From the NCBI GenBank assembly GCA_046732715.1, contig JBKPNQ010000004.1, forward strand, positions 4,150 to 68,149: a stretch of DNA of 64,000 nucleotides, in the 5' to 3' direction. The position numbers and the translations under genes were made by a program. The notes below the pieces were generated by a model. That model made no database searches. It was not told where the DNA came from and was given only the letters and a program-made list of their open reading frames with translations. Shown here piece by piece: positions 54,087 through 64,000 of this stretch. How positions within the stretch are numbered: position 1 is the first letter of the stretch; each line of letters begins with the position of its first letter. Source of the stretch: Acidobacteriota bacterium (GTDB lineage Bacteria > Acidobacteriota > Vicinamibacteria > Vicinamibacterales > 2-12-FULL-66-21).

Positions 54087-55145
54087 TCAAGACTCCGGCG
54101 GGGCAGTGGGTTTCAACGCGGCAATCGTGCGCGCATAGACGTCGAGATACCCGTCGGCCATTTTGGCGACCGAGAAATTCGATTCGACGAACGACCGGCA
54201 GGCAGTCGGATCGAGATCCAGCGATGAGATGCGCCTGGCCATGTCGTCGACGTCCGAACAGATCCACCCATTCACGCCGTTGCGGACGATTTCTTCAACC
54301 GCGCCGCCGGCGAAGGCGAGCACCGGTGTTCCGCACGCCATCGCCTCGATGAGAACGAGCCCGAACGGTTCTTGCCACTGAATCGGGAAGAGCAGGGCGC
54401 TGGCCTTGGCGAGCAGCGCATTCTTGGCGGCGAAGTCTGCTTCGCCGACGTACTCAATCTGATCGCCGTCAACGAATGGCACGACCTCCTGTTGCCAATA
54501 GTCGTTGAAGAGCGGCTGAATTTCACCGGCGAGCTTGAGCTGCACGCCGGCACGAAGCGCGGCGGCAATCGCCAGATGCGGGCCTTTACACGGGGCCATG
54601 CGGCCGAGAAAGGCGACGTACTTCTCTTTTTCATTCGACATGCGATAGTCCGAGACCGGAATGCCGTGATGCACCACTCGAACGCGGGGCATCGGCTCCG
54701 TCCGCGCGAGCCACTCGGCTATCGCGACGTAGCACGTGTCGGGGTATCTCACGTACTGTTGGGTCAATTCCTCATCGTGAGGATGGTGGATCGTCAGGAC
54801 AGCCGGGACATCGATGAATCTCGTGAACGGCAGGCCGACCACGTCGTTGAGATGAATGACGTCGGCCCACGTTGACGCATCTTTCATCGCCCACGCCGTG
54901 TGATCGGCATTCTTGAGCTGCGACTGCGCGGATCCGTCAGGCGGCCAGTCGGAGTGTTCGTAGCGCCATTTGACCGGACACGGTGTGTCCGATTCGCCGT
55001 TGGCGTAGACGACGACGTCGTGGCCCCGCATGTAGAGCTCGGACGCCAGGTTGGCGATGAAAAGCTCAGTGCCTCCATATCGCCTTGGGGGAATTTCAAT
55101 GAATGGTGGTCCTATTAATGCGATGCGCCGTAACGGTTGAGTCAA
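54087..55145 (-). CDS. Glycosyltransferase family 4
   Basis: IPPRRYGGTE, HHGI, FLGRMAPCKG, LLFPIQWQEPFGLVLIEAMACGTPV. Confidence 0.93.
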   Translation of the reverse strand: MTQPLRRIALIGPPFIEIPPRRYGGTELFIANLASELYMRGHDVVVYANGESDTPCPVKWRYEHSDWPPDGSAQSQLKNADHTAWAMKDASTWADVIHLNDVVGLPFTRFIDVPAVLTIHHPHDEELTQQYVRYPDTCYVAIAEWLARTEPMPRVRVVHHGIPVSDYRMSNEKEKYVAFLGRMAPCKGPHLAIAAALRAGVQLKLAGEIQPLFNDYWQQEVVPFVDGDQIEYVGEADFAAKNALLAKASALLFPIQWQEPFGLVLIEAMACGTPVLAFAGGAVEEIVRNGVNGWICSDVDDMARRISSLDLDPTACRSFVESNFSVAKMADGYLDVYARTIAALKPTAPPES

Positions 55146-55465
55146 CGTGTGGCCCCGTCGAGGATGTCTATTGGCCAGCTAGTGCAAGCCACGGTCCACA
55201 ACGACAAGGGACAAGAGACACTGACCACGGAAAGAAACGGTTGTGTTCGGGCCGAAAGGTTTGACCAGTGTTACGCCTACGTTACTAAGTTGCGCGAGCT
55301 CAGCGACGGAAGTATCGGTGCGCGGTGGCCTACGACACGCCTTCCGCCCCGTCCGGTCGAAAGGGGCGACGGCGAGACTTTGATGGGGGATCGGTCAGGG
55401 ACTGGTTCAGCTGTGGCGTCGCAGGCTGACTCCGGTTCCTCGCCGATCCGATCGAGGCACATCTG

Positions 55466-55837
55466 ATGAAGTTTGCGAAGATCGTTTTCACAGGCGCTGG
55501 CATCTGGGGCCTGTTGGTGCTCTCGCCTCTGTACTTCCTGTTCGACGCTGTCGGCCAGAAATACCCGCCACCGGTTACGCACCCTGACTTTTATTACGGG
55601 TTCGTCGGCTTGGGGCTCGCGTGGCAGTTGGCGTTCCTTGTCATCGGCAGGGATCCTGTCCGCTTCCGTCCGATGATGATTCCAGCTGTCTGCGAAAAGG
55701 CCTTCTACGTGATCAGCCTGTTGACGCTGTACATGACAGGAAGCATCGAGGCCGGACAACTTGCTGTCGGCGGCCCTGACTTGCTTCTTGGCTGTCTATT
55801 CGTGTCGGCGTTTGTGAAGACCCCTCGACTCGCCTGA
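55466..55837 (+). CDS. Small membrane hypothetical protein
   Basis: GAGG RBS; about four hydrophobic segments; HPDFYYGF, DPVRFRPMM..EK. Confidence 0.75.
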   Translation: MKFAKIVFTGAGIWGLLVLSPLYFLFDAVGQKYPPPVTHPDFYYGFVGLGLAWQLAFLVIGRDPVRFRPMMIPAVCEKAFYVISLLTLYMTGSIEAGQLAVGGPDLLLGCLFVSAFVKTPRLA

Positions 55838-55930
55838 CTGTCGCTCAGGGCACGCCCGCGGCCAGGAGCCAACAGCCAGGCGCCAAGCAGCTCGCCGTAA
55901 GCAAGCGCACACTTCACGCGAGTCGAAGGG

Positions 55931-56635
55931 TCATCGCGTCGATGTGCTGTCGAGACAGATCAGTTGCTGCTGCTGGTCGTGCGTCAATCGGAGATGGCCA
56001 GGCTTCGGGAAGGCCAGATCGTTGACGCTGAGAGTTCCGCGCAGCAATCCGACGGTCGAGTGATTCGTCGTGTCGAGGAGGTAGTGCGCGAGCTCATGGG
56101 CGAGCGCTACACCCAGCATCTGTACAAGGATCAGGTCGCGCTCCACACGCGATCGTGAGAGGAACGGCCGGCCTTCGATCTCTGCTCCTGTGGCCAGCGC
56201 CTCGGCGTTGGCCGGCCACAGGTGAATGTATGGCGTCGCGTGGCCACCCGAGAACAGCGTATCGCCGAGGATCGTGGGTCGAAAGCCGGTCGCGGTGGTC
56301 GTCGTGCCACGTGAAATGACCACGGCGATTGCGTCAGTGCCCGTGCTCGGTTCGATGCAGACGCCATACGGGTTCCAAATCCGGTTTGCCATCTCGAGGA
56401 TCCGCTTGATTCCGGTATCGTCGATATCGGGCTGATTATAGATTTTCAGCCCGAGCACGCGGGACTGGAGTGCTTCGGCTGCGCACTCGGAGCAGCCCTG
56501 ACAGCGTGTCGATACTCGCTCGCGATCGGGTGAAGCTGCGAGCGCTGGTGCCGCAAGGCAGCCAAGTAGCGGAATCATCAGCACGCAGGCTCCGAGCCGC
56601 CGCGGCTGACGCGTCAATCGCGTCGTCATTGCCAT
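55931..56635 (-). CDS. Secreted HExxH (zincin-like) hypothetical protein
   Basis: AAGGA RBS, signal-like segment, LGVALAHELAHYLL..H..GLL. Confidence 0.7.
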   Translation of the reverse strand: MAMTTRLTRQPRRLGACVLMIPLLGCLAAPALAASPDRERVSTRCQGCSECAAEALQSRVLGLKIYNQPDIDDTGIKRILEMANRIWNPYGVCIEPSTGTDAIAVVISRGTTTTATGFRPTILGDTLFSGGHATPYIHLWPANAEALATGAEIEGRPFLSRSRVERDLILVQMLGVALAHELAHYLLDTTNHSTVGLLRGTLSVNDLAFPKPGHLRLTHDQQQQLICLDSTSTR

Positions 56636-56678
56636 GTAAATCCTTCGGCGTTGGAGAAGCGTCAACGCCCACACTAAG

Positions 56679-56706
56679 GTAGGGCTCGATTACGCGAGTT
56701 CTTTCA
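56679..56706 (-). promoter_or_regulatory. Shared motif copy 3: TGAAAGA-N16-CCTAC (candidate ECF promoter)
   Basis: Minus strand tgaaaga actcgcgtaatcgagc cctac, 44 nt before ATG 56635. Confidence 0.55.
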
Positions 56707-56758
56707 GGAACCGAACGTCCACTGAGTGGCGCGACCGCGCGACGAATTGCGGCAGGGA

Positions 56759-57510
56759 TCAGGAGATCCGTACGGGGAATCGGAGAGGGCTGTGTGCGCT
56801 CGAGTCACGACCGAATCGAGAGGACGCCCCATATCTCCCGGCGACACGATTGCGTCCTGCGCGCTTCGCTCGATACAACGCGGCGTCGGCTTCCTCGATC
56901 CACTCGAGCGCCGACTGCTCTTGCGCGAGTTCGACGACGCCGATGCTGATCGAGACGTGCGCTCCAGGCACCAGCCGCGCGTCCTGCACCAAGCGGCGGA
57001 GATCCTCGGCAACGAACAGCGCATCGCTGAAGCGTGTTCCGGACAACAGCAGGACGAATTCTTCGCCGCCTGCGCGGAACAGCGCGTCGACCTTGCGCAC
57101 CCGTTGTCCCGCCAGCGCGACCAGCGATTTGAGAACGCGGTCTCCCTCGGCGTGCCCGAGTGCATCGTTGATGTCTTTGAATCGATCGATGTCGAACATC
57201 AGAACCGTGGCGCGTTCACCAGATCGGCGTCGCCGTTCGACCGCCGCCGCCAGCGTCGTGTGCATCTGCCGCCGGTTGTACGCGCCGGTCAGCGGATCGG
57301 TGATCACCTGCTCTTCGAGCATGTGAACCCGATGCTGAAGCGCCGCCACTCTGACTACCGCGACTGCCGCGACCGCAAGAACGACCAGATTGACAGTCAC
57401 TGCAGCGGCGCTCAGAAAGTCCGCGACGTCCCGGCATGGGGCGTACGAACGGTGCTGATTGAGGCGAGAGCAAGCCGAGTCCAGAAGCGGCGCAAAGCCA
57501 CTCGATCCAT
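56759..57510 (-). CDS. GGDEF diguanylate cyclase with N-terminal TM helix; 5' end apparently frameshifted
   Basis: TDPLTGAYNRR, DIDRFKDINDALGHAEGD, FRAGGEEF, SISIG, ADAALYRAKRAGRNR; the GGAGG-ATG at 57510 is out of frame with the domain. Confidence 0.8.
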
Positions 57511-57527
57511 CCGTACCTCCCAGCGAA

Positions 57528-57554
57528 ATAGGCGACGGTGAACGAAATCTTTCA
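57528..57554 (-). promoter_or_regulatory. Shared motif copy 2: TGAAAGA-N15-CCTAT
   Basis: Minus strand tgaaaga tttcgttcaccgtcg cctat, overlapping the CHAT stop codon, upstream of the GGDEF RBS. Confidence 0.5.
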
Positions 57555-60500
57555 GCGGGAGGTGCGGAGACGAGTCCAGTCGCCGGATTGGATGAAGCCG
57601 CCCCAGTAGTAGGGGTGGCGCAGGCCTGGACGTCGCAGGATCGACAGTTTCGCCTGACGAAGAGCGTCGCCTCGACCGGCGCCCGATCGCAGCCGCGCGT
57701 AGTAGGCCACCATCGTGTCGCGCGCCACGGCATCGCTCACAGGCCACAGGCTCATGACGAGCGTCTCGGCTCCGGCCAGCATGAACGCGCGCCGTAGCCC
57801 GTAGACGCCCTCGCCGTTGTGGATGTCCCCGACGCCGGTGTCGCAGGCCGAAAGCGTGACCAGACTGGTTCCGCGGAGGTTCAGGCCGGCAGCTTCGAGC
57901 GCCGTCAGGATGCCATCGCCATCGCCCTGTGCGGTTCCGGCGAAGTTGGCGCCGGCGAGCGCCAGTCCCGATCGCAGCAGCGGATTCTGAGCGATGACCG
58001 ACTCCGATCCGCCGCTGGCGTCGTCTTCCAGGAAGAATCCATGCGACGCGATGTGCAGGATGTTCGGCGCCGCGATCCGTGTGAGCGTGGACTTTGTCGC
58101 ACGTCGTCCGGTCAGCAAAGTCGCGTCCGGGAAGAGCGCCTTGATGGCACGGCCTTCCAGCGCGCTGCCGAGCAGCGGGGCGAAGTAGAGGCCGGACAAG
58201 TCGGCGCCGACGGTGACGGAGCGGGAGCCGCCGGTCGCCGCTGATTGTCCGCGTCGCGCGACGGTGGCCGACGGTTCGCCGAACAGCGGGTCGGCGACGA
58301 TCACCGGCTTGCCAGGCGCGGCCGGCGCGCTCTGCATGCGGAGCAGATCGCGGCCGCTGGTGAGATAGGTCATGGCGTATCGCTCGATCAGGTAGCGGCC
58401 ATGTTCGTCCACCAGGGCCTCGAAGGGCACCAGGTTCAAGCCGCCGTCTGGCGAGATCAACAGGCGGGTGACGCCCGCCAGGGAGGCGCGCAGCGGCCGT
58501 ACGATTCTCTCGTCGAGCGCGCGGCCTCGTGCGTTCACGTCGGTGTCACCCGGGTCGCGAAGCGCTGTGCGCAGGCCGACAATCAGTGCGTCGATGTCTT
58601 CGACCGCGCCGAGATCAAACCCGATGGGTGGACCGTGCTTTGAGACGACGTAGGCGGCGTAGTGAGGTGGTCCGTAGGCTTCTTCATTCCGCTCGGCCTC
58701 CGGATCGAAGGGACGGAACACGGCGAATTCAATCAACACAGCGTCGCGTGGAATCGCCGCCTGTACGGTTTCCAGCGTGACCGGACACATATCAGCCCTG
58801 AACTCCGCGCTCCGCTCACTGAGCGTCGCTTCCAGTTGCTCCTTGCGCGCCTCAATCTCGGCGACCGACTCGCGCACGTCCGGCGCCGATTGTCGTGCTC
58901 CGCCCAGGGCGATGCGGGCGAGGCTGGCATCGGTCTCTTTCAACTCGTCCATCAGCATCTGATCGTCCGGGGCGGCCACGCGCTGTCGCGCCGCAGCGAA
59001 GAGATCCGTCATCGCGTCCTGCACACGGCCCTTCCGCTGAAGCAGAACCAGCGCAGCCAACGACGCAGCGTCCGGGTTGTCGGGCGCCTGCCTGAGATGG
59101 AGTGAGATCGTGCGGTCGGTGCGGTCCGCTTCGTTCCTGACGAACGCCAGTTTCTGCCGCTCCGAGCCGGTCGCGAGGTAGAGGTTCAGCTGCATCTCGA
59201 GAATCGCGTCAGCCCGCCGCTGGAACTTCAGCGCATTTTCGATGTCGCCGGCGCCGGCGTAGGTGCGCGCGATGTTGCCGACGACGAGGAGCGTTTCGCG
59301 ACCGTACGGTCCGACGCTCTTTTCCCACATGCTCAAGGCGCGGAAATGGATCTCGAGCGCTTGTTGATCGTTTCCGGTTGCGCGATAGATGTTCGCGAGG
59401 TTCGTCAGCACCCCGGCCAGGCCCGGATGATCCGGTCCGAGCAGCCGTTCCCGAATCGACAAGGCGCGGCTGTAATAGCTGACCGCCTCGTCGTAGTTCT
59501 TGCGCTCGCGCGCCATGATGCCGAGATTCTGCAAGGCTGTCGCGACGAAGAGGCTGTTGCTGCCAATCAGCGACTCACCGATCGCTAGCGACTTCCGGAA
59601 CAGCGACTCGGCGCCCGCGTAGTCGTTCCTCGCGCGGAGGACGTCGGCGAGATTGTTCTCGAGCGTCGCCTCCAGAAGCGTACCCGTCTGCCCGGTACGC
59701 TCGACCACCGCCAACGCGTCACGGTCGACGTGCTCGGCCTGCCGCAGGTCTCCGGCGCTCTGGCGCAGGTTTCCAAGCGTGACCAGCGACAGCAGATACC
59801 ACGGGTGCGCGGAGCCAAGAGAGCGCTCGAGGAGCGGCAGCACGTCGCGGATAGCCGCCTCCGCCTTCAGACGCTGACCGGCGCGCTCATCGAGCAGCGC
59901 CAGTCGCGATCGTGTCATCGCCGCATACGGGTGCGCCGCGCCCCACGCGCTGTCGAACGTCGCCAGGGCTCGCTCGTACAAAGACCTTGCTCGGTCGTTG
60001 TCTTGCGCCTCCAGCGCGTTGCCGGCAAGGTCGAATCGCAACAGCGCGAGCGACGTGGCGTCGATTCCCGGCACCGACTCCGCGACCGAAAGCGACTGCT
60101 CCAGGAGCGTCCGCGCCTCGGTGAAGTGTCCACTCCGCTCGAGTTGTTGTCCGAGCGAGCGCAAGATGAGCGATTGCTGCAGGCGGCGGTCTGATTCCGA
60201 CGCCACTCGCGCGGCCCCCATTCGGATGACGAAATCTCCCGGGTCTACCGCTCCAGTGGCCGGCCTGACGGTGACGGTGTAGGTCCCCGCCGCCGACGCG
60301 ACAATCTCGACGTGTTCTTCGCCGTCGCGCCGGATTTCGTCCTGAAAGTCACAAATCGGCTTTCCTCCTGTGTCCGACACCGAGACCACGAGGTCGATCC
60401 CTTTCTGCTCGACAGCGATGGCGACGGCCGTGGCCGCGGTGAGCGCGAGTTGAAACCGCTGCTGCTCGCCCGGCGCGATGTGTCGTTGGATAGGGATTTC

Positions 60501-60605
60501 CGGGATGAGCCTCGAGACCTCCGGCTCCTGGCTGCTGAGGTTCGAGAAGAGCAGAGCGGTCGCGGTCCAGGTGGTGGCGGTATTGAAAAGAAAGGCGCCG
60601 CGCAT
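57552..60605 (-). CDS. TPR-CHAT (caspase HetF-like) protease with N-terminal PPC-like domain
   Basis: Signal-like N-terminus; VEQKGIDLVV; kinesin-light-chain-like TPRs; ISPDGGLNLVPFEAL, ILHIASHG (His), LSACDTG (Cys), SLWPVSD, HPYYWGGF. Confidence 0.93.
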   Translation of the reverse strand: MRGAFLFNTATTWTATALLFSNLSSQEPEVSRLIPEIPIQRHIAPGEQQRFQLALTAATAVAIAVEQKGIDLVVSVSDTGGKPICDFQDEIRRDGEEHVEIVASAAGTYTVTVRPATGAVDPGDFVIRMGAARVASESDRRLQQSLILRSLGQQLERSGHFTEARTLLEQSLSVAESVPGIDATSLALLRFDLAGNALEAQDNDRARSLYERALATFDSAWGAAHPYAAMTRSRLALLDERAGQRLKAEAAIRDVLPLLERSLGSAHPWYLLSLVTLGNLRQSAGDLRQAEHVDRDALAVVERTGQTGTLLEATLENNLADVLRARNDYAGAESLFRKSLAIGESLIGSNSLFVATALQNLGIMARERKNYDEAVSYYSRALSIRERLLGPDHPGLAGVLTNLANIYRATGNDQQALEIHFRALSMWEKSVGPYGRETLLVVGNIARTYAGAGDIENALKFQRRADAILEMQLNLYLATGSERQKLAFVRNEADRTDRTISLHLRQAPDNPDAASLAALVLLQRKGRVQDAMTDLFAAARQRVAAPDDQMLMDELKETDASLARIALGGARQSAPDVRESVAEIEARKEQLEATLSERSAEFRADMCPVTLETVQAAIPRDAVLIEFAVFRPFDPEAERNEEAYGPPHYAAYVVSKHGPPIGFDLGAVEDIDALIVGLRTALRDPGDTDVNARGRALDERIVRPLRASLAGVTRLLISPDGGLNLVPFEALVDEHGRYLIERYAMTYLTSGRDLLRMQSAPAAPGKPVIVADPLFGEPSATVARRGQSAATGGSRSVTVGADLSGLYFAPLLGSALEGRAIKALFPDATLLTGRRATKSTLTRIAAPNILHIASHGFFLEDDASGGSESVIAQNPLLRSGLALAGANFAGTAQGDGDGILTALEAAGLNLRGTSLVTLSACDTGVGDIHNGEGVYGLRRAFMLAGAETLVMSLWPVSDAVARDTMVAYYARLRSGAGRGDALRQAKLSILRRPGLRHPYYWGGFIQSGDWTRLRTSR

Positions 60606-61510
60606 TACTGCCGCGCCACCTCGAATGCGTAGGTGGCAACGAAGTCAGGCGGCGCGCTTGCGTGCACGAAAAGGTCGAGTGCGTAGTGCTGCGCCTTCAG
60701 CAGCGCGGCGGGCAGCCCGATTGATACCACTGGCGCGAGGCGCTCTCGATTCGGGGCCACTGGCGCGCTGCGCCAGATGATGCGATTGGTCGCGGGATCC
60801 TTGAGCGCAACGTCGTAGGAGGCGGATCCAACCGCTTCGACCTCGAGGTCCAACGGCACACTGCGCGATCCCGGCGCCACCGAGATGATCGGCGTTGGTC
60901 CGACGCCGCGCGTCTGCGGCCGGAGCACGAGCGCGATCGCGGAGAGTGGTCTGACGGCCCGCGCATCCGCGAGGGCTTGGGTAGCGGTCGCAGCCGCCTT
61001 CCGCTGTTGGTCGAGTTCAGCCGACACGGTATTGGCGCGTTCGGTCGCGGCGGTGATCTGTCCCCTGGCGATATCCAGGTCACGCCGAAGAGAGACATGC
61101 TGAAGGACGAGCACGCTGACGCTTACAAACAACGCAGCCGCGACCGCCTGCGCCCACGGAAATATGCGGCGGCGTCTGGCCGGCCGTGGAACGATTGCGG
61201 GCTGCGGCACGGCAGACAGACGCGATTCGGGACGATCGATCTTCGCCAGGAAGCCTGTCGCGAATGCTGCCTTTCTGCGACGGCGCGGCGACGCGAGGTA
61301 GAACGACTCGAACCGCCGCCGCGTCTCGCCGCTGAGTGTGCCGGCCGCGTAGGCGTCCACCAAATCGTCTTCGACAAGCCGCAATCGCGTCGACAGCTCG
61401 TCGTCGATGATGCTCAGCTCTTCGAGACGTTCGGTATCCTCTTCGGGCAGGCAGCCAAGGACATAGCTCACCAGTTGGTCGTCGCTAAACGGTTCTCGGG
61501 GCTGAGACAT
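60605..61510 (-). CDS. Putative membrane-anchored anti-sigma factor
   Basis: LVSYVLG.L.EE..ERLEE..EDDLVDAY..G.L; one TM helix, coiled coil, C-terminal beta domain; TAATG coupling to CHAT; no HxxxCxxC. Confidence 0.7.
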   Translation of the reverse strand: MSQPREPFSDDQLVSYVLGCLPEEDTERLEELSIIDDELSTRLRLVEDDLVDAYAAGTLSGETRRRFESFYLASPRRRRKAAFATGFLAKIDRPESRLSAVPQPAIVPRPARRRRIFPWAQAVAAALFVSVSVLVLQHVSLRRDLDIARGQITAATERANTVSAELDQQRKAAATATQALADARAVRPLSAIALVLRPQTRGVGPTPIISVAPGSRSVPLDLEVEAVGSASYDVALKDPATNRIIWRSAPVAPNRERLAPVVSIGLPAALLKAQHYALDLFVHASAPPDFVATYAFEVARQ

Positions 61511-61539
61511 AGGCTCCAGATCGAAAGGCCCTTCTTAGG

Positions 61540-61567
61540 ATAGGAATTCCGCCACCAGAATCTTTCA
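61540..61567 (-). promoter_or_regulatory. Shared motif copy 1: TGAAAGA-N16-CCTAT
   Basis: Minus strand tgaaaga ttctggtggcggaatt cctat, overlapping the sigma stop, 30 nt before the anti-sigma ATG. Confidence 0.55.
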
Positions 61568-62173
61568 GAGCCGTTTTCGGCAGGCGCCGACGCAGCGTTC
61601 CAGGTTCGCCCGCAGGCGCCAGGCTCGAATACCCAGCGCGTTCATGCTAATCCCGAGCTGCCGGGCGAGTTCCCTGCGTCGATCGATTCGCTGTCGTTTC
61701 GCGTCGCGGTAGTACTCGACGATCAGGTGCTTGTCCTCTGGCTTCAGGATGTTCAGGCAACGCCCCAGGCAGTCGAGCGACTGGTCCACACCGTCGTCGG
61801 CGCCCGACAGGTCAGCTCGCGCATGGTGGACGGCGGCACGGGTTTCCTCGAATGGAACGTCGCGACGCGTCCGCCGGATGTCCTCGAGGAGCACAAATCG
61901 TGCGACGACGTAGCAGTAGCGCGCCGGGGGCGTGACCTTGATGCGGCCGGACTCCTCGAGCGTCCTGCTCACGCGATCGAATGTCTCATCGGCCAACACG
62001 TCCGGTGCCGGGCGGTTGCGTCGATCAAAGTAGGCGACCAGGCGGCGTCGCATTTCCAGGTAGCGCTCGCCCTGCGAGTCGGACCCGTCATCGAGCCAGC
62101 GAAGGAGCCGTGTGAAAGCGGTTCCGGAGATCCCCGAATCGTGTCGATCAACTTCCTGCGTCAGAACAGTCAT
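61565..62173 (-). CDS. Atypical ECF-type RNA polymerase sigma factor
   Basis: FTRLLRWLD..GERY..RRRLVAYF, LADETFDRV, CLGRCL..L, RRELARQLGISMNALGIRAWRLRANLERC. Confidence 0.8.
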   Translation of the reverse strand: MTVLTQEVDRHDSGISGTAFTRLLRWLDDGSDSQGERYLEMRRRLVAYFDRRNRPAPDVLADETFDRVSRTLEESGRIKVTPPARYCYVVARFVLLEDIRRTRRDVPFEETRAAVHHARADLSGADDGVDQSLDCLGRCLNILKPEDKHLIVEYYRDAKRQRIDRRRELARQLGISMNALGIRAWRLRANLERCVGACRKRL

Positions 62174-62416
62174 GATGATTTCTTCGTTCGCGTATTTACC
62201 ATCCGCCGATCGGTCGGATGAAGCAACTCCATGCAAGACACGTGACCACGATGGACGATGAGAAAGATCTGCAGACGATCAATATTTGATGACGTGCAGC
62301 TGTCCGAAGGTAAGACCTCGCCCCGGCCGGCTCGCCCCGATCGCTGCGAGCGACAAAAACCGGCGCCTCGTTACGCACGCCGTAAATGCCGACTGGTTCG
62401 AAGGTCCTGATCGTCC

Positions 62417-62998
62417 CTACACTGCCACCCCTTCGTCCTTTGGTTCCTCTACGCTTCGCATGTGAGGGGTCGCGCGTTTCAATTCGTCGCCGAGCAGGCC
62501 ACGCAGCGCTTCACGGGCTCGCGACAGGCCCGACATCACCGTGCCGATCGGAATGTCCATGACATCCGCCAGCTCACGATAGGAAAGTCCCTCAATCTCG
62601 CGGAGGACGATCAGTTCGCGAAATCGATCGGGCAGGCTGCCGATCGCCCGCTCGATCCGTGCCGCAGTATCGGTCCGCAGCATCAGCGTCTCCGGACTAT
62701 TGGACGACTGCGCGCTGCTGTGACGTTCCTCATCGAACGGATCCGTCAGCGTCCGGATCGGTTTCCATTCGCCGTGGCAGGTGTTTCGGACAATCCGAAG
62801 AAACCAGGCGCGGCCGTTTCCGCCGCCGAAGGTCCGAAAGTAGCGGAACGCGCGCAGCGCCGCTTCCTGCACCACGTCTTCTGCATCGTCTTCGTTCCGC
62901 ACCAGCCAGCGCGCCAGCCGGTAGGCCGCGTCAAGGTGAGGCAGGACGACATCGTCGAAGGTCGCTCCCTCGTCGAGTGACCGTGTGACTTCATTCAC
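62417..62998 (-). CDS. ECF RNA polymerase sigma factor (sigma24 type)
   Basis: PHLDAAYRLARWL, DAEDVVQEA, RAWFLRIVRN, LREIEGLSY.E.A..IPIGTVMSGLSRAR; GTGA overlap with upstream gene. Confidence 0.93.
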   Translation of the reverse strand: MNEVTRSLDEGATFDDVVLPHLDAAYRLARWLVRNEDDAEDVVQEAALRAFRYFRTFGGGNGRAWFLRIVRNTCHGEWKPIRTLTDPFDEERHSSAQSSNSPETLMLRTDTAARIERAIGSLPDRFRELIVLREIEGLSYRELADVMDIPIGTVMSGLSRAREALRGLLGDELKRATPHMRSVEEPKDEGVAV

Positions 62999-63942
62999 GA
63001 TGTGACCTCGCTGGCGCCGACGATCTGTTGGATGCCCTCTTCGAGCGTCGGATAACTGAATTGAAAGCCGGTTCCCCGAAGCCGGATGTTTGAGAACACC
63101 ATGTCGCCCTCGAGGCAATCGACGGTCGTGCGGCGACCGAGAATCTGCGCCGCGGCGGCGGGGAGCCGCCGCACCTTCAGCGGCCGCTCAGCCATGCGCG
63201 CGAACGTTTCCGCGAACTCATGAACCTGAATCGGATCGCTGTTGACGAGAAAATAGCGGCTTCCAGGTTCGCCCCGTTCGGCCAGGTGGACGAGCGCCCG
63301 GGCGCAGTCGTGAACGTGAATGGGCGAGATCCAATTCCGGCTCGCGCCAAACTGCAGGACTCGACGGCCTGACATGATGGGCTCCAGGATTCGCTCTCGA
63401 AACCAGGCACCATTGCCGTAGACCCACCCGGGAAGCGCGGTGACGACCGGTAGCCCGGCGACGACATACCCGTCCAGTCGATCGAGAGCCGGACTGAGGC
63501 AGCGTCCCCAGCCACCTGGCCGAAGCGGTGAGTCTTCCGTGATCGGACGTGCACCGGTGATTCCGTAGCAGCTCGAATCGGCCACGTACACCACCCGGCG
63601 CGTCGTCCCGTTGGCGACGGCATCCAGCAGGTTGGCATCCATCGCGACGCGTTCACTCATCAGCGCCGCCGCGTGTCGGCGTCCGCGCGCTTCATGCATC
63701 AGCGGCTGCGGTGGGATATGGAACACCCACTCAGTACCTGCCTCGTCCTGCCACTGACCCGGCTTCGCTAGCTCTCCGACGACGGCCGTGGCTCCTGCCC
63801 GGCGAAGTCGATGCGCTGACTCCACCGAAGGTACCAGGCCAATCACCTGATGGCCGCCCGCGACCAGGACCTTCACGAGCTCCCTGCCGACAAACCCGAC
63901 GGCGTTCGTAACGAAAGTGGTGACTCCTTCGCCGACTGTCAT
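62995..63942 (-). CDS. NAD-dependent epimerase/dehydratase family protein (degenerate motifs)
   Basis: FVTNAVGFVG (variant of TGxxGxxG), PITED, PGWVYG, PIHVHD.A, GFQFSYPT.EEG. Confidence 0.8.
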   Translation of the reverse strand: MTVGEGVTTFVTNAVGFVGRELVKVLVAGGHQVIGLVPSVESAHRLRRAGATAVVGELAKPGQWQDEAGTEWVFHIPPQPLMHEARGRRHAAALMSERVAMDANLLDAVANGTTRRVVYVADSSCYGITGARPITEDSPLRPGGWGRCLSPALDRLDGYVVAGLPVVTALPGWVYGNGAWFRERILEPIMSGRRVLQFGASRNWISPIHVHDCARALVHLAERGEPGSRYFLVNSDPIQVHEFAETFARMAERPLKVRRLPAAAAQILGRRTTVDCLEGDMVFSNIRLRGTGFQFSYPTLEEGIQQIVGASEVTS

Positions 63943-64000
63943 GGCGCCAGTGTGAACCGTCCTCGGATGCAGGCGCCACGGACGATGCCCATACAGCAGC

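Follow-up and report, generated by a model that had tools for sequence, protein, structure and literature searches.

A bipartite DNA motif, TGAAAGA-N15/16-CCTAY, occurs three times in a gene cluster of an Acidobacteriota bacterium (GenBank assembly GCA_046732715.1, contig JBKPNQ010000004.1, positions 4,150 to 68,149); this stretch of 64,000 nucleotides (nt), analysed at its full length, is referred to below as the window. The cluster begins with sigX, a gene for a divergent sigma factor of the extracytoplasmic function (ECF) type, and the copies precede, in turn, an anti-sigma/TPR-CHAT gene pair, a GGDEF gene, and a gene for a protein with an HExxH motif. Comparative sequence analysis suggests that the three copies are sigma-dependent promoters of these genes and are read by sigX, a reading to which a probability of roughly 0.8 is assigned. 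The motif would then be the ECF target promoter of an uncharacterised sigma family, unusual both in its consensus, GA(A/C)(A/G)G(A/G)TTT-N13-TCCTATC with boxes 16, rarely 15, bases apart, and in its position.

A search of the window with TGAAAGAN{15,16}CCTAY, the written form of TGAAAGA-N15/16-CCTAY, returns three matches, all on the minus strand, and none in 100 dinucleotide-preserving shuffles of the window. The first-pass annotation of this DNA had placed three minus-strand copies here, two reusing the TGA stop codon of the gene upstream and a third lying at no called stop, and the coordinates bear this description out exactly (Table 1). In copy 1, the TGA with which sigX ends (61565-61567) overlaps the -35-like TGAAAGATT, and 29 nt separate CCTAT from the ATG of the anti-sigma gene at 61510. 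In copy 2, TGAAAGATTTC shares bases with the TGA that ends the CHAT gene (57552-57554), and CCTAT is 17 nt from an ATG at 57510 that carries a GGGAGG Shine-Dalgarno sequence. Copy 3 sits 53 nt beyond the GGDEF stop codon (56759-56761), at a point where no plausible gene stops, with 43 nt between CCTAC and the HExxH ATG at 56635; start codons and intergenic calls throughout follow simple open-reading-frame logic rather than gene-finder output. The extension CCTAYCYTA, also proposed in the first-pass annotation, is present within the window in copies 1 and 3 only and is not kept in orthologues, and is therefore not part of the element.

The motif is retained in orthologous clusters, as the first-pass annotation had proposed to check. 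Twenty of 61 related genomes contain a sigX homologue, and the 20 loci were fetched; nine of them, including the window, share at least 72% sigX identity and form the close set. The motif is present at the sigX stop in eight of these nine loci by regular expression, the ninth reading GAAACA, and at the CHAT stop in all seven close loci that hold CHAT. The site before the HExxH gene is shared by the window and its two closest relatives (L034 and L035) and is missing in four close loci in which the GGDEF and HExxH genes abut. An alignment of site 1 from the nine close loci, fixed at the -10 box, gives mean pairwise identities of 0.85 for the -35 box and 0.89 for the -10 box, as against 0.34 for the spacer and 0.37 for the sequence downstream. 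The corresponding values at site 2 (seven loci) are 0.73, 0.84, and, for the spacer, 0.34. The boxes are thus conserved at the same junctions while the spacer drifts.

A wider survey of sigma loci, using one genome per species, yielded 63 loci with record titles that are almost all Acidobacteriota, mostly Vicinamibacterales. Sixty of these were tabulated, three with a partial sigma match (L121, L133, and L141) being left out; the 42 loci with a sigma identity of at least 54% constitute the main survey set, and the other 18 are more distant. A sequence matching GAnnGn-N15/16-[CA]CTAY lies between -20 and +75 of the sigma stop in 37 of the 42 loci, compared with 13 of 1660 random 95-nt windows drawn from the same loci; at the sigma stop of the 18 more distant loci, this pattern is absent. 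The motif begins at -8, +1, +9, +12, or +23 relative to the stop, such that the -35 box is variously formed by the last sigma codons, by the stop codon itself, or by plain intergenic DNA. This use of five offsets indicates a DNA element rather than a by-product of the coding sequence. All 37 junction sites have a -35 box of GA(A/C)(A/G)G and a -10 box of CCTAT, with 16 nt between GAnnGn and CCTAY in 34 sites and 15 nt in three, and the median distance from the -10 box to the start codon is 28 nt. Agreement also extends to bases left free by the search pattern: the three bases after the -35 box are T in 34, 34, and 37 of the 37 sites, a T precedes CCTA in 28, and a C follows CCTAT in 27.

When the 42 loci are scanned with a matrix built from the 37 sites, 70 hits exceed 18 bits; the reversed sequence yields none. 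Forty of these hits are at the sigma/anti-sigma junction (of 42 loci) and seven are just after CHAT; another 13 face a divergent neighbour from the opposite strand, no more than about 300 nt upstream of the sigma gene. Four more, at 30-34 bits, are upstream of the sigma gene itself (L104, L109, L112, and L123), and six are elsewhere. When all 30 non-junction hits are tabulated, each is oriented toward the next gene on its own strand, divergent genes included. Outside the main survey set, related bipartite sequences such as GAAATGTTTT..GTCTTATA were seen at the same junction by eye and were left uncounted, and in clusters with a sigma identity of 43-53% the -10 box reads, again by eye, GTCTYAT.

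Two variations on the junction were observed in this survey. One subclade has a sigma with an N-terminal extension of about 50 residues, giving 251-253 residues in three loci and 233 residues at the automatic start in L123, and its junction copy has CACTAT instead of CCTAT. In L084, L085, L087, and others, the first in-frame anti-sigma ATG is just 7-10 nt past CCTAT, so that the transcript would be leaderless or nearly so if it starts where expected.

That the repeats are functionless, arising by chance or as leftover similarity between recently diverged sequences, is very improbable. The sequences are short and A+T-rich in a genome of 63% G+C, and close relatives share ancestry; the shuffled windows, however, contain no match, the junctions are enriched at 37 of 42 loci over 13 of 1660 windows, and the motif is shifted relative to the stop, with an identity of about 0.34 in spacer and flanks against 0.85-0.89 in the boxes.

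The layout of the motif is that of an ECF promoter: two boxes, a fixed spacer within the 14-17 nt range, and a position upstream of, and co-directional with, a gene. A T-tract just past the -35 box, as seen in some ECF groups, is present as well. The first-pass annotation had recognised a -35/-10 ECF geometry, with which the 16-nt spacer of 34 of 37 sites and the TTT tract agree. It was also right that the motif departs from GGAAC..CGT, yet each box is only one base away from the promoters of the Bacillus subtilis sigmaW/V type, tGAAACnTTTt ... CGTA (PMC5758882). Those promoters and the present motif have in common a purine-rich -35 box with the T-tract behind it and a short -10 box, with a spacer of roughly 16 nt; here, a G replaces the C of AAC (GAAAG) and a C replaces the G of CGT (CCTAT), and sigX belongs to another family in another phylum.

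A different reading of the same sites, as the target of a DNA-binding regulator or as an RNA-level signal for processing, stability, or translation within a long sigX-to-HExxH transcript, would account for two copies standing at stop codons inside a possible single operon. A scan with the sigma-70 consensus found no promoter between the cluster genes, nor was an intrinsic terminator found there, as such a transcript would have it; four terminator-like sites in the cluster scan are all inside genes or under shuffle expectation. The two boxes, however, are unlike each other and form neither direct nor inverted repeats, their spacing is held at 16 nt in 34 of 37 sites around a free spacer, and every one of the 30 non-junction hits points at the next gene on its strand. 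An RNA signal is further opposed by the lack of a consensus structure at site 1, where RNAalifold predicts no pairs among the close loci, and by an Rfam search of 55000-64000 at E<=1, which gave a lone microRNA match at 0.43 that was dismissed and nothing at gathering score. Unlinked sites, described below, precede single genes rather than lying in a long transcript. A regulator site or RNA signal is accordingly judged unlikely, and a promoter is the preferred reading.

The presumed reader of this promoter is a protein that curated models miss. sigX matches no Pfam family at E<=0.01, and against NCBIfam it reaches 35.2 bits (1.1e-8) with TIGR02989, for which the cut-off is 124.55, and 16.5 bits with TIGR02937, for which the cut-off is 42.9. 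Searched as a single sequence against solved structures, it has no hits at E<=10, whereas a profile of 23 homologues aligns with Mycobacterium tuberculosis SigL (1.8e-6, positions 53-188) and Rhodobacter sphaeroides RpoE (2.7e-5, positions 14-185). The AlphaFold2 model (predicted local distance difference test score, 77) contains two helical domains, residues 17-104 and 125-201, joined by a disordered linker, and the top 15 Foldseek matches to this model are all ECF sigmas, the best being 6dv9_F at 8.4e-4. Eight of the 23 homologues weakly touch Sigma70_r4_2, and three weakly touch Sigma70_r2. On the basis of the profile hits, the two-domain model, the Foldseek matches, and the weak Sigma70 matches among homologues, sigX is assigned by profile and predicted fold as a divergent ECF-type sigma; it fits the ECF layout, with just sigma2 and sigma4 regions, while failing the curated Pfam and TIGR02937 models. 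The gene is present as a single copy in the source genome, and the family numbers 1833 database proteins at E<=1e-3, many of which are named "sigma24 family" by one source. Conserved in the family are two C-x3-C pairs, one before and one after the region-4 helix-turn-helix (residues 135, 139, 194, and 198), C139 and C194 being invariant in the 23 sequences; the four cysteines may form a metal or redox site.

Beyond the cluster, the source draft genome (6.63 Mb, 63% G+C) holds eight matches to the strict pattern, as against two for the pattern read backwards. Each of the five strict hits outside the window is ahead of a gene, these genes encoding an LCM-family methyltransferase, a cupredoxin-like lipoprotein, two lipoproteins of no known family, and a penicillin-binding-protein-like product. 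A further site, at 24 bits (C224), is ahead of a TonB-dependent-receptor-like gene. The methyltransferase site is found in three genomes (G000, G015, and G031), with differing spacers, and G031 is of another genus; for one lipoprotein, the site is kept in G008. Cupredoxin paralogues lie near the sigX clusters of five relatives. With a crude gene map, six of ten hits to GAAAGA-N15/16-CCTAY are intergenic. Among the 61 relatives, strict matches number 27 (control, 14) in the ten genomes that have a close sigma, at 59% identity or more, and eight (control, 41) in the remaining 51. Strict hits in the sigma-less genomes G019 and G004, and those at G001:C10 and G008:C136, are inside genes or have no gene behind them and look like chance. 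The first-pass annotation had proposed the motif as the target promoter of the atypical ECF and the definition of its local regulon: the loci survey supports the former, and the methyltransferase site in three genomes suggests that the regulon is probably not purely local.

Several observations weigh against sigX-dependent promoters as the explanation of the motif. The motif lacks both hallmarks of the common ECF promoter consensus, a -35 box with AAC and a -10 box with CGT (PMC5758882), and the 37 junction sites fit the matrix by construction. Matrix scans find no motif upstream of sigX itself, in the window or in its nine closest relatives. Site conservation outside the cluster is patchy: the methyltransferase orthologue of G014 is without the motif, the lipoprotein site at C211 is kept in G025 and absent from the G015 orthologue, and four of six cupredoxin paralogues fail the regular expression, two passing. 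Genome-wide, the family matrix gives 24 hits versus 12 in the control above 15 bits and five versus one above 18 bits, and a regulon drawn from the matrix alone was rejected as unreliable on the former count. In the genome scan that the first-pass annotation had called for, eight strict matches stand against two reversed, enrichment outside the cluster is weak, and the controls for intergenic location are mixed (three of five for the reversed pattern, three of seven and none of 13 for shuffles, none of three for N11-12, and none of seven for N19-20). The split between genomes with a close sigma and the others was chosen after the variant motifs were known, and related genomes are not independent. 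As site conservation is patchy and the scans are barely above control, the methyltransferase alone is taken as a probable unlinked target, the other extra-cluster sites being candidates.

The last of the opposing points concerns a second sigma gene, referred to here as ECF2, which encodes an ordinary ECF sigma 240 nt upstream of sigX in the window and has no adjacent anti-sigma gene there. ECF2, or another of the many ECF sigmas of the genome, might read the motif in place of sigX. Its orthologues, at about 60-76% identity, are present in seven of the nine relatives with a close sigX, in three of them 15-17 kb away on the same contig, so that genome-level counts do not by themselves tell the two sigmas apart. 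A distinction emerges from the locus survey: of the 42 loci, 40 have the anti-sigma gene next to sigX and 30 have CHAT, while an ECF2 homologue (at least 55% identity) is within 6 kb of sigX in three, compared with 37-40 that have the motif at the junction. Moreover, G031, a genome 90% complete, has no ECF2 at E<=1e-40 and yet carries the strict motif in the cluster and before the methyltransferase gene. The four copies of 30-34 bits upstream of sigX itself, and the -10 box that drifts together with sigX in the distant clusters, likewise argue against ECF2 as the reader. ECF2 follows the gene of an NAD-dependent epimerase (DUF1731-type), with overlapping stop and start codons, in several genomes (62417-63942 in the window; L067-L069), and it is probably a separate two-gene unit with the epimerase and not part of the sigX module. 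A reader other than sigX is thus considered improbable.

With sigX as the preferred reader, the region upstream of its own gene deserves separate description. In L104, L109, L112, and L123, the upstream copy sits about 90 nt before the N-terminally extended sigX; as the motif is absent from this position in the closest clade, the argument from autoregulation rests on these four more distant loci. By eye, the nine close loci share other conserved blocks in this region: TTTCGAA followed by a palindrome, TTTACG-N5-CGTAAC; a second palindrome, ATCAAATATTGAT; and, some 70 nt ahead of the ATG, GTCACGTGTCTTGCATGG. These blocks resemble sites of other regulators. The conserved GGTCACGTGTCTTGCAT block was also considered as a sigma-54 site, an idea that was dropped since the GG is not conserved and the spacing is one base too long for the consensus.

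Table 1. Features of the sigX cluster and its surroundings, in window coordinates.
Feature	Position	Strand	Remarks
Motif copy 1	61540..61567	-	TGAAAGATTCTGGTGGCGGAATTCCTAT; 16-nt spacer; -10-like TCCTATC
Motif copy 2	57528..57554	-	TGAAAGATTTCGTTCACCGTCGCCTAT; 15-nt spacer; GCCTAT
Motif copy 3	56679..56706	-	TGAAAGAACTCGCGTAATCGAGCCCTAC; 16-nt spacer; GGDEF-HExxH intergenic region
Candidate fourth site	55254..55280	+	GAAAGG-N16-CCTAC; 185 nt before the gene for the 123-residue membrane protein; weak
sigX	61565..62173	-	Divergent ECF-type sigma, 202 residues; presumed reader of the motif
Upstream region of sigX	62174..62416	-	About 240 nt; no motif copy and no matrix hit
Presumed anti-sigma	60605..61510	-	301 residues, single-pass; weak zf-HC2
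TPR-CHAT protein	57552..60605	-	1017 residues; CHAT 8e-78, TPR_12 6e-56
32-codon upstream frame	57412..57510	-	Directly after copy 2; out of frame with GGDEF
GGDEF diguanylate cyclase	56759..57400	-	213 residues from GTG 57400; GGDEF 3.6e-40; one N-terminal hydrophobic helix
HExxH protein	55931..56635	-	234 residues; HELAH in the translation; secreted or lipoprotein-like
Membrane protein	55466..55837	+	123 residues; no known family; convergent with the cluster
ECF2	62417..63118	-	Ordinary ECF sigma; Sigma70_r2 and Sigma70_r4_2; PRK12533 2.6e-57

The gene directly downstream of sigX in 40 of the 42 loci encodes, in the window, a protein of 301 residues that matches zf-HC2 at 3.2e-4, just under the cut-off and over profile positions 6-25 only; 11 of 14 homologues match the same family, the best at 2.3e-5. 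Its model comprises a helical N-terminal domain (residues 10-91), a linker, a long helix (residues 119-184), and a C-terminal beta-sandwich. Residues 1-100 hold a single cysteine and no H-x3-C-x2-C. The sequence has no hits among solved structures at E<=10, its profile gives nothing meaningful, and a fold search with the model returns just Ig- and cupredoxin-like matches to the C-terminal sandwich and none to the N-terminal domain. Synteny and the weak zf-HC2 matches point to this protein as the presumed anti-sigma that would bind sigX.

The CHAT gene starts within the anti-sigma stop (TAATG), and its product carries the HG and AC motifs typical of the caspase dyad. Of the 42 related loci, several of them truncated at contig ends, 30 hold CHAT. 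In L042 (G031), the CHAT stop is followed by an extended tandem array of GGGCAAT-like heptamers. The 32-codon frame behind copy 2 is preceded by a strong ribosome-binding site (GGGAGG) and ends 11 nt before the GTG at 57400, which is most likely the GGDEF start, judging from orthologues of 212-218 residues. In the closest relative, a frame of 26 codons occupies this place, and four other relatives lack one and begin GGDEF at that ATG; the frame may encode a leader peptide with coupled translation or may reflect a recent rearrangement. The HExxH protein matches no Pfam or NCBIfam family and has homologues in 13 of the 42 loci, two of which carry a divergent copy of the motif ahead of the homologue. 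On the far side of the cluster, the site at 55254-55280 scores 18.4 bits with a close-orthologue matrix and below 15 bits with the family matrix and is a low-confidence candidate for a fourth copy. Homologues of the neighbouring 123-residue membrane protein occur in L089 and L098 and, in G008 and G018, close to the ECF2 loci, and in L098 a 26-bit site starts 47 nt before the start of the gene. A 160-residue minus-strand frame (55277-55759) that overlaps this gene is probably not a gene.

The nearest characterised counterpart is the DdvS/DdvA system of Myxococcus xanthus, in which an ECF sigma is paired with a transmembrane anti-sigma that has a periplasmic TPR-CHAT domain (PMC6061681, PMC11506125). 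As in that system, an ECF sigma, a membrane anti-sigma, and TPR-CHAT are encoded together, and several sigma-dependent promoters occur in one locus, four in M. xanthus and a predicted three here. The differences are in the organisation of the genes, the anti-sigma, the promoter, and the targets. DdvA is a fusion, whereas the anti-sigma and TPR-CHAT proteins of the window are products of separate, translationally overlapping genes. DdvA binds zinc (CHCC), whereas the N-terminal domain of the present anti-sigma is without H-x3-C-x2-C. DdvS promoters read GTAA-N16-CGT (PMC6061681) and the promoter predicted here reads GAAAGATTT-N13-TCCTAT, and the sigX gene, unlike its counterpart, is not preceded by the motif. 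The DdvS/DdvA targets are CBASS (cyclic-oligonucleotide-based antiphage signalling) or CRISPR systems, that is, defence genes, in place of which a GGDEF enzyme and an HExxH protein are predicted here. DdvA-like fused proteins are reported by the authors from Myxococcota and one Comamonas only.

Two other systems combine an ECF sigma with TPR-CHAT. ECF54, a group from Actinobacteria, has a neighbourhood of CHAT/TPR, subtilase, and carboxypeptidase-regulatory proteins (PMC8999054; PMC7826278, supplement) and resembles the sigX loci in this conserved pairing of an ECF sigma with a CHAT/TPR protein. ECF54 is described as having no anti-sigma and as confined to Actinobacteria, whereas an anti-sigma-like gene follows sigX in 40 of 42 loci with Acidobacteriota titles. 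In the type III-E CRISPR craspase, the TPR-CHAT protein Csx29 cleaves a partner of an ECF sigma, which likewise links a TPR-CHAT protease to ECF sigma control; the anti-sigma of the present cluster is predicted to be membrane-anchored rather than cytoplasmic, and no CRISPR or Cas genes were seen in the region examined. A literature search for an ECF group with this context returned just ECF54 and DdvS, and no description of the family or motif in the material retrieved, which includes part of the PMC7826278 supplement; other parts of that supplement may classify the family.

In the circuit proposed from these data, the 301-residue protein would bind sigX. RNA polymerase with free sigX would transcribe the anti-sigma/TPR-CHAT pair from copy 1, the 32-codon frame and GGDEF from copy 2, and the HExxH gene from copy 3, starting a few bases after CCTAY in each case, and would probably also transcribe a few unlinked envelope genes. 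The separate CHAT protein might act on the anti-sigma, by analogy with DdvA. Since the motif is absent upstream of sigX in the clade of the window, the sigma would induce its inhibitor, giving negative feedback without positive autoregulation. A precedent is found in Escherichia coli, in which a sigmaE-dependent promoter stands ahead of rseA. A more far-reaching interpretation, put forward only tentatively and with the odds somewhat against it, is that these loci form an Acidobacteriota-specific module equivalent to a split DdvS/DdvA. In such a module, a sigma family missed by curated sigma-70 models would read a promoter on its own stop codon and induce the anti-sigma and TPR-CHAT genes without inducing itself; the outputs would be cyclic di-GMP (c-di-GMP) synthesis, a secreted HExxH protein, small cupredoxin-like lipoproteins, and the LCM-type methyltransferase. 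CHAT would remove the anti-sigma, and the conserved cysteines of sigX would provide a second, redox or metal, input.

ECF sigmas are among the main means by which bacteria sense their surroundings, and their groups are understood largely through promoter motif and gene neighbourhood. The element described here is an ordinary kind of regulatory site, and the gain is one of annotation and of an experimental handle, not of a new principle. For the sigX family, which is common in soil Acidobacteriota and is missed by curated Pfam models, the analysis yields a testable promoter consensus, GA(A/C)(A/G)G(A/G)TTT-N13-TCCTATC, and a first predicted regulon, in which the GGDEF gene suggests a c-di-GMP output. 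It would also extend beyond Myxococcota the connection between sigma/anti-sigma control and a TPR-CHAT protease-like protein, DdvA, with its reportedly narrow distribution, being the only characterised case in the literature retrieved.

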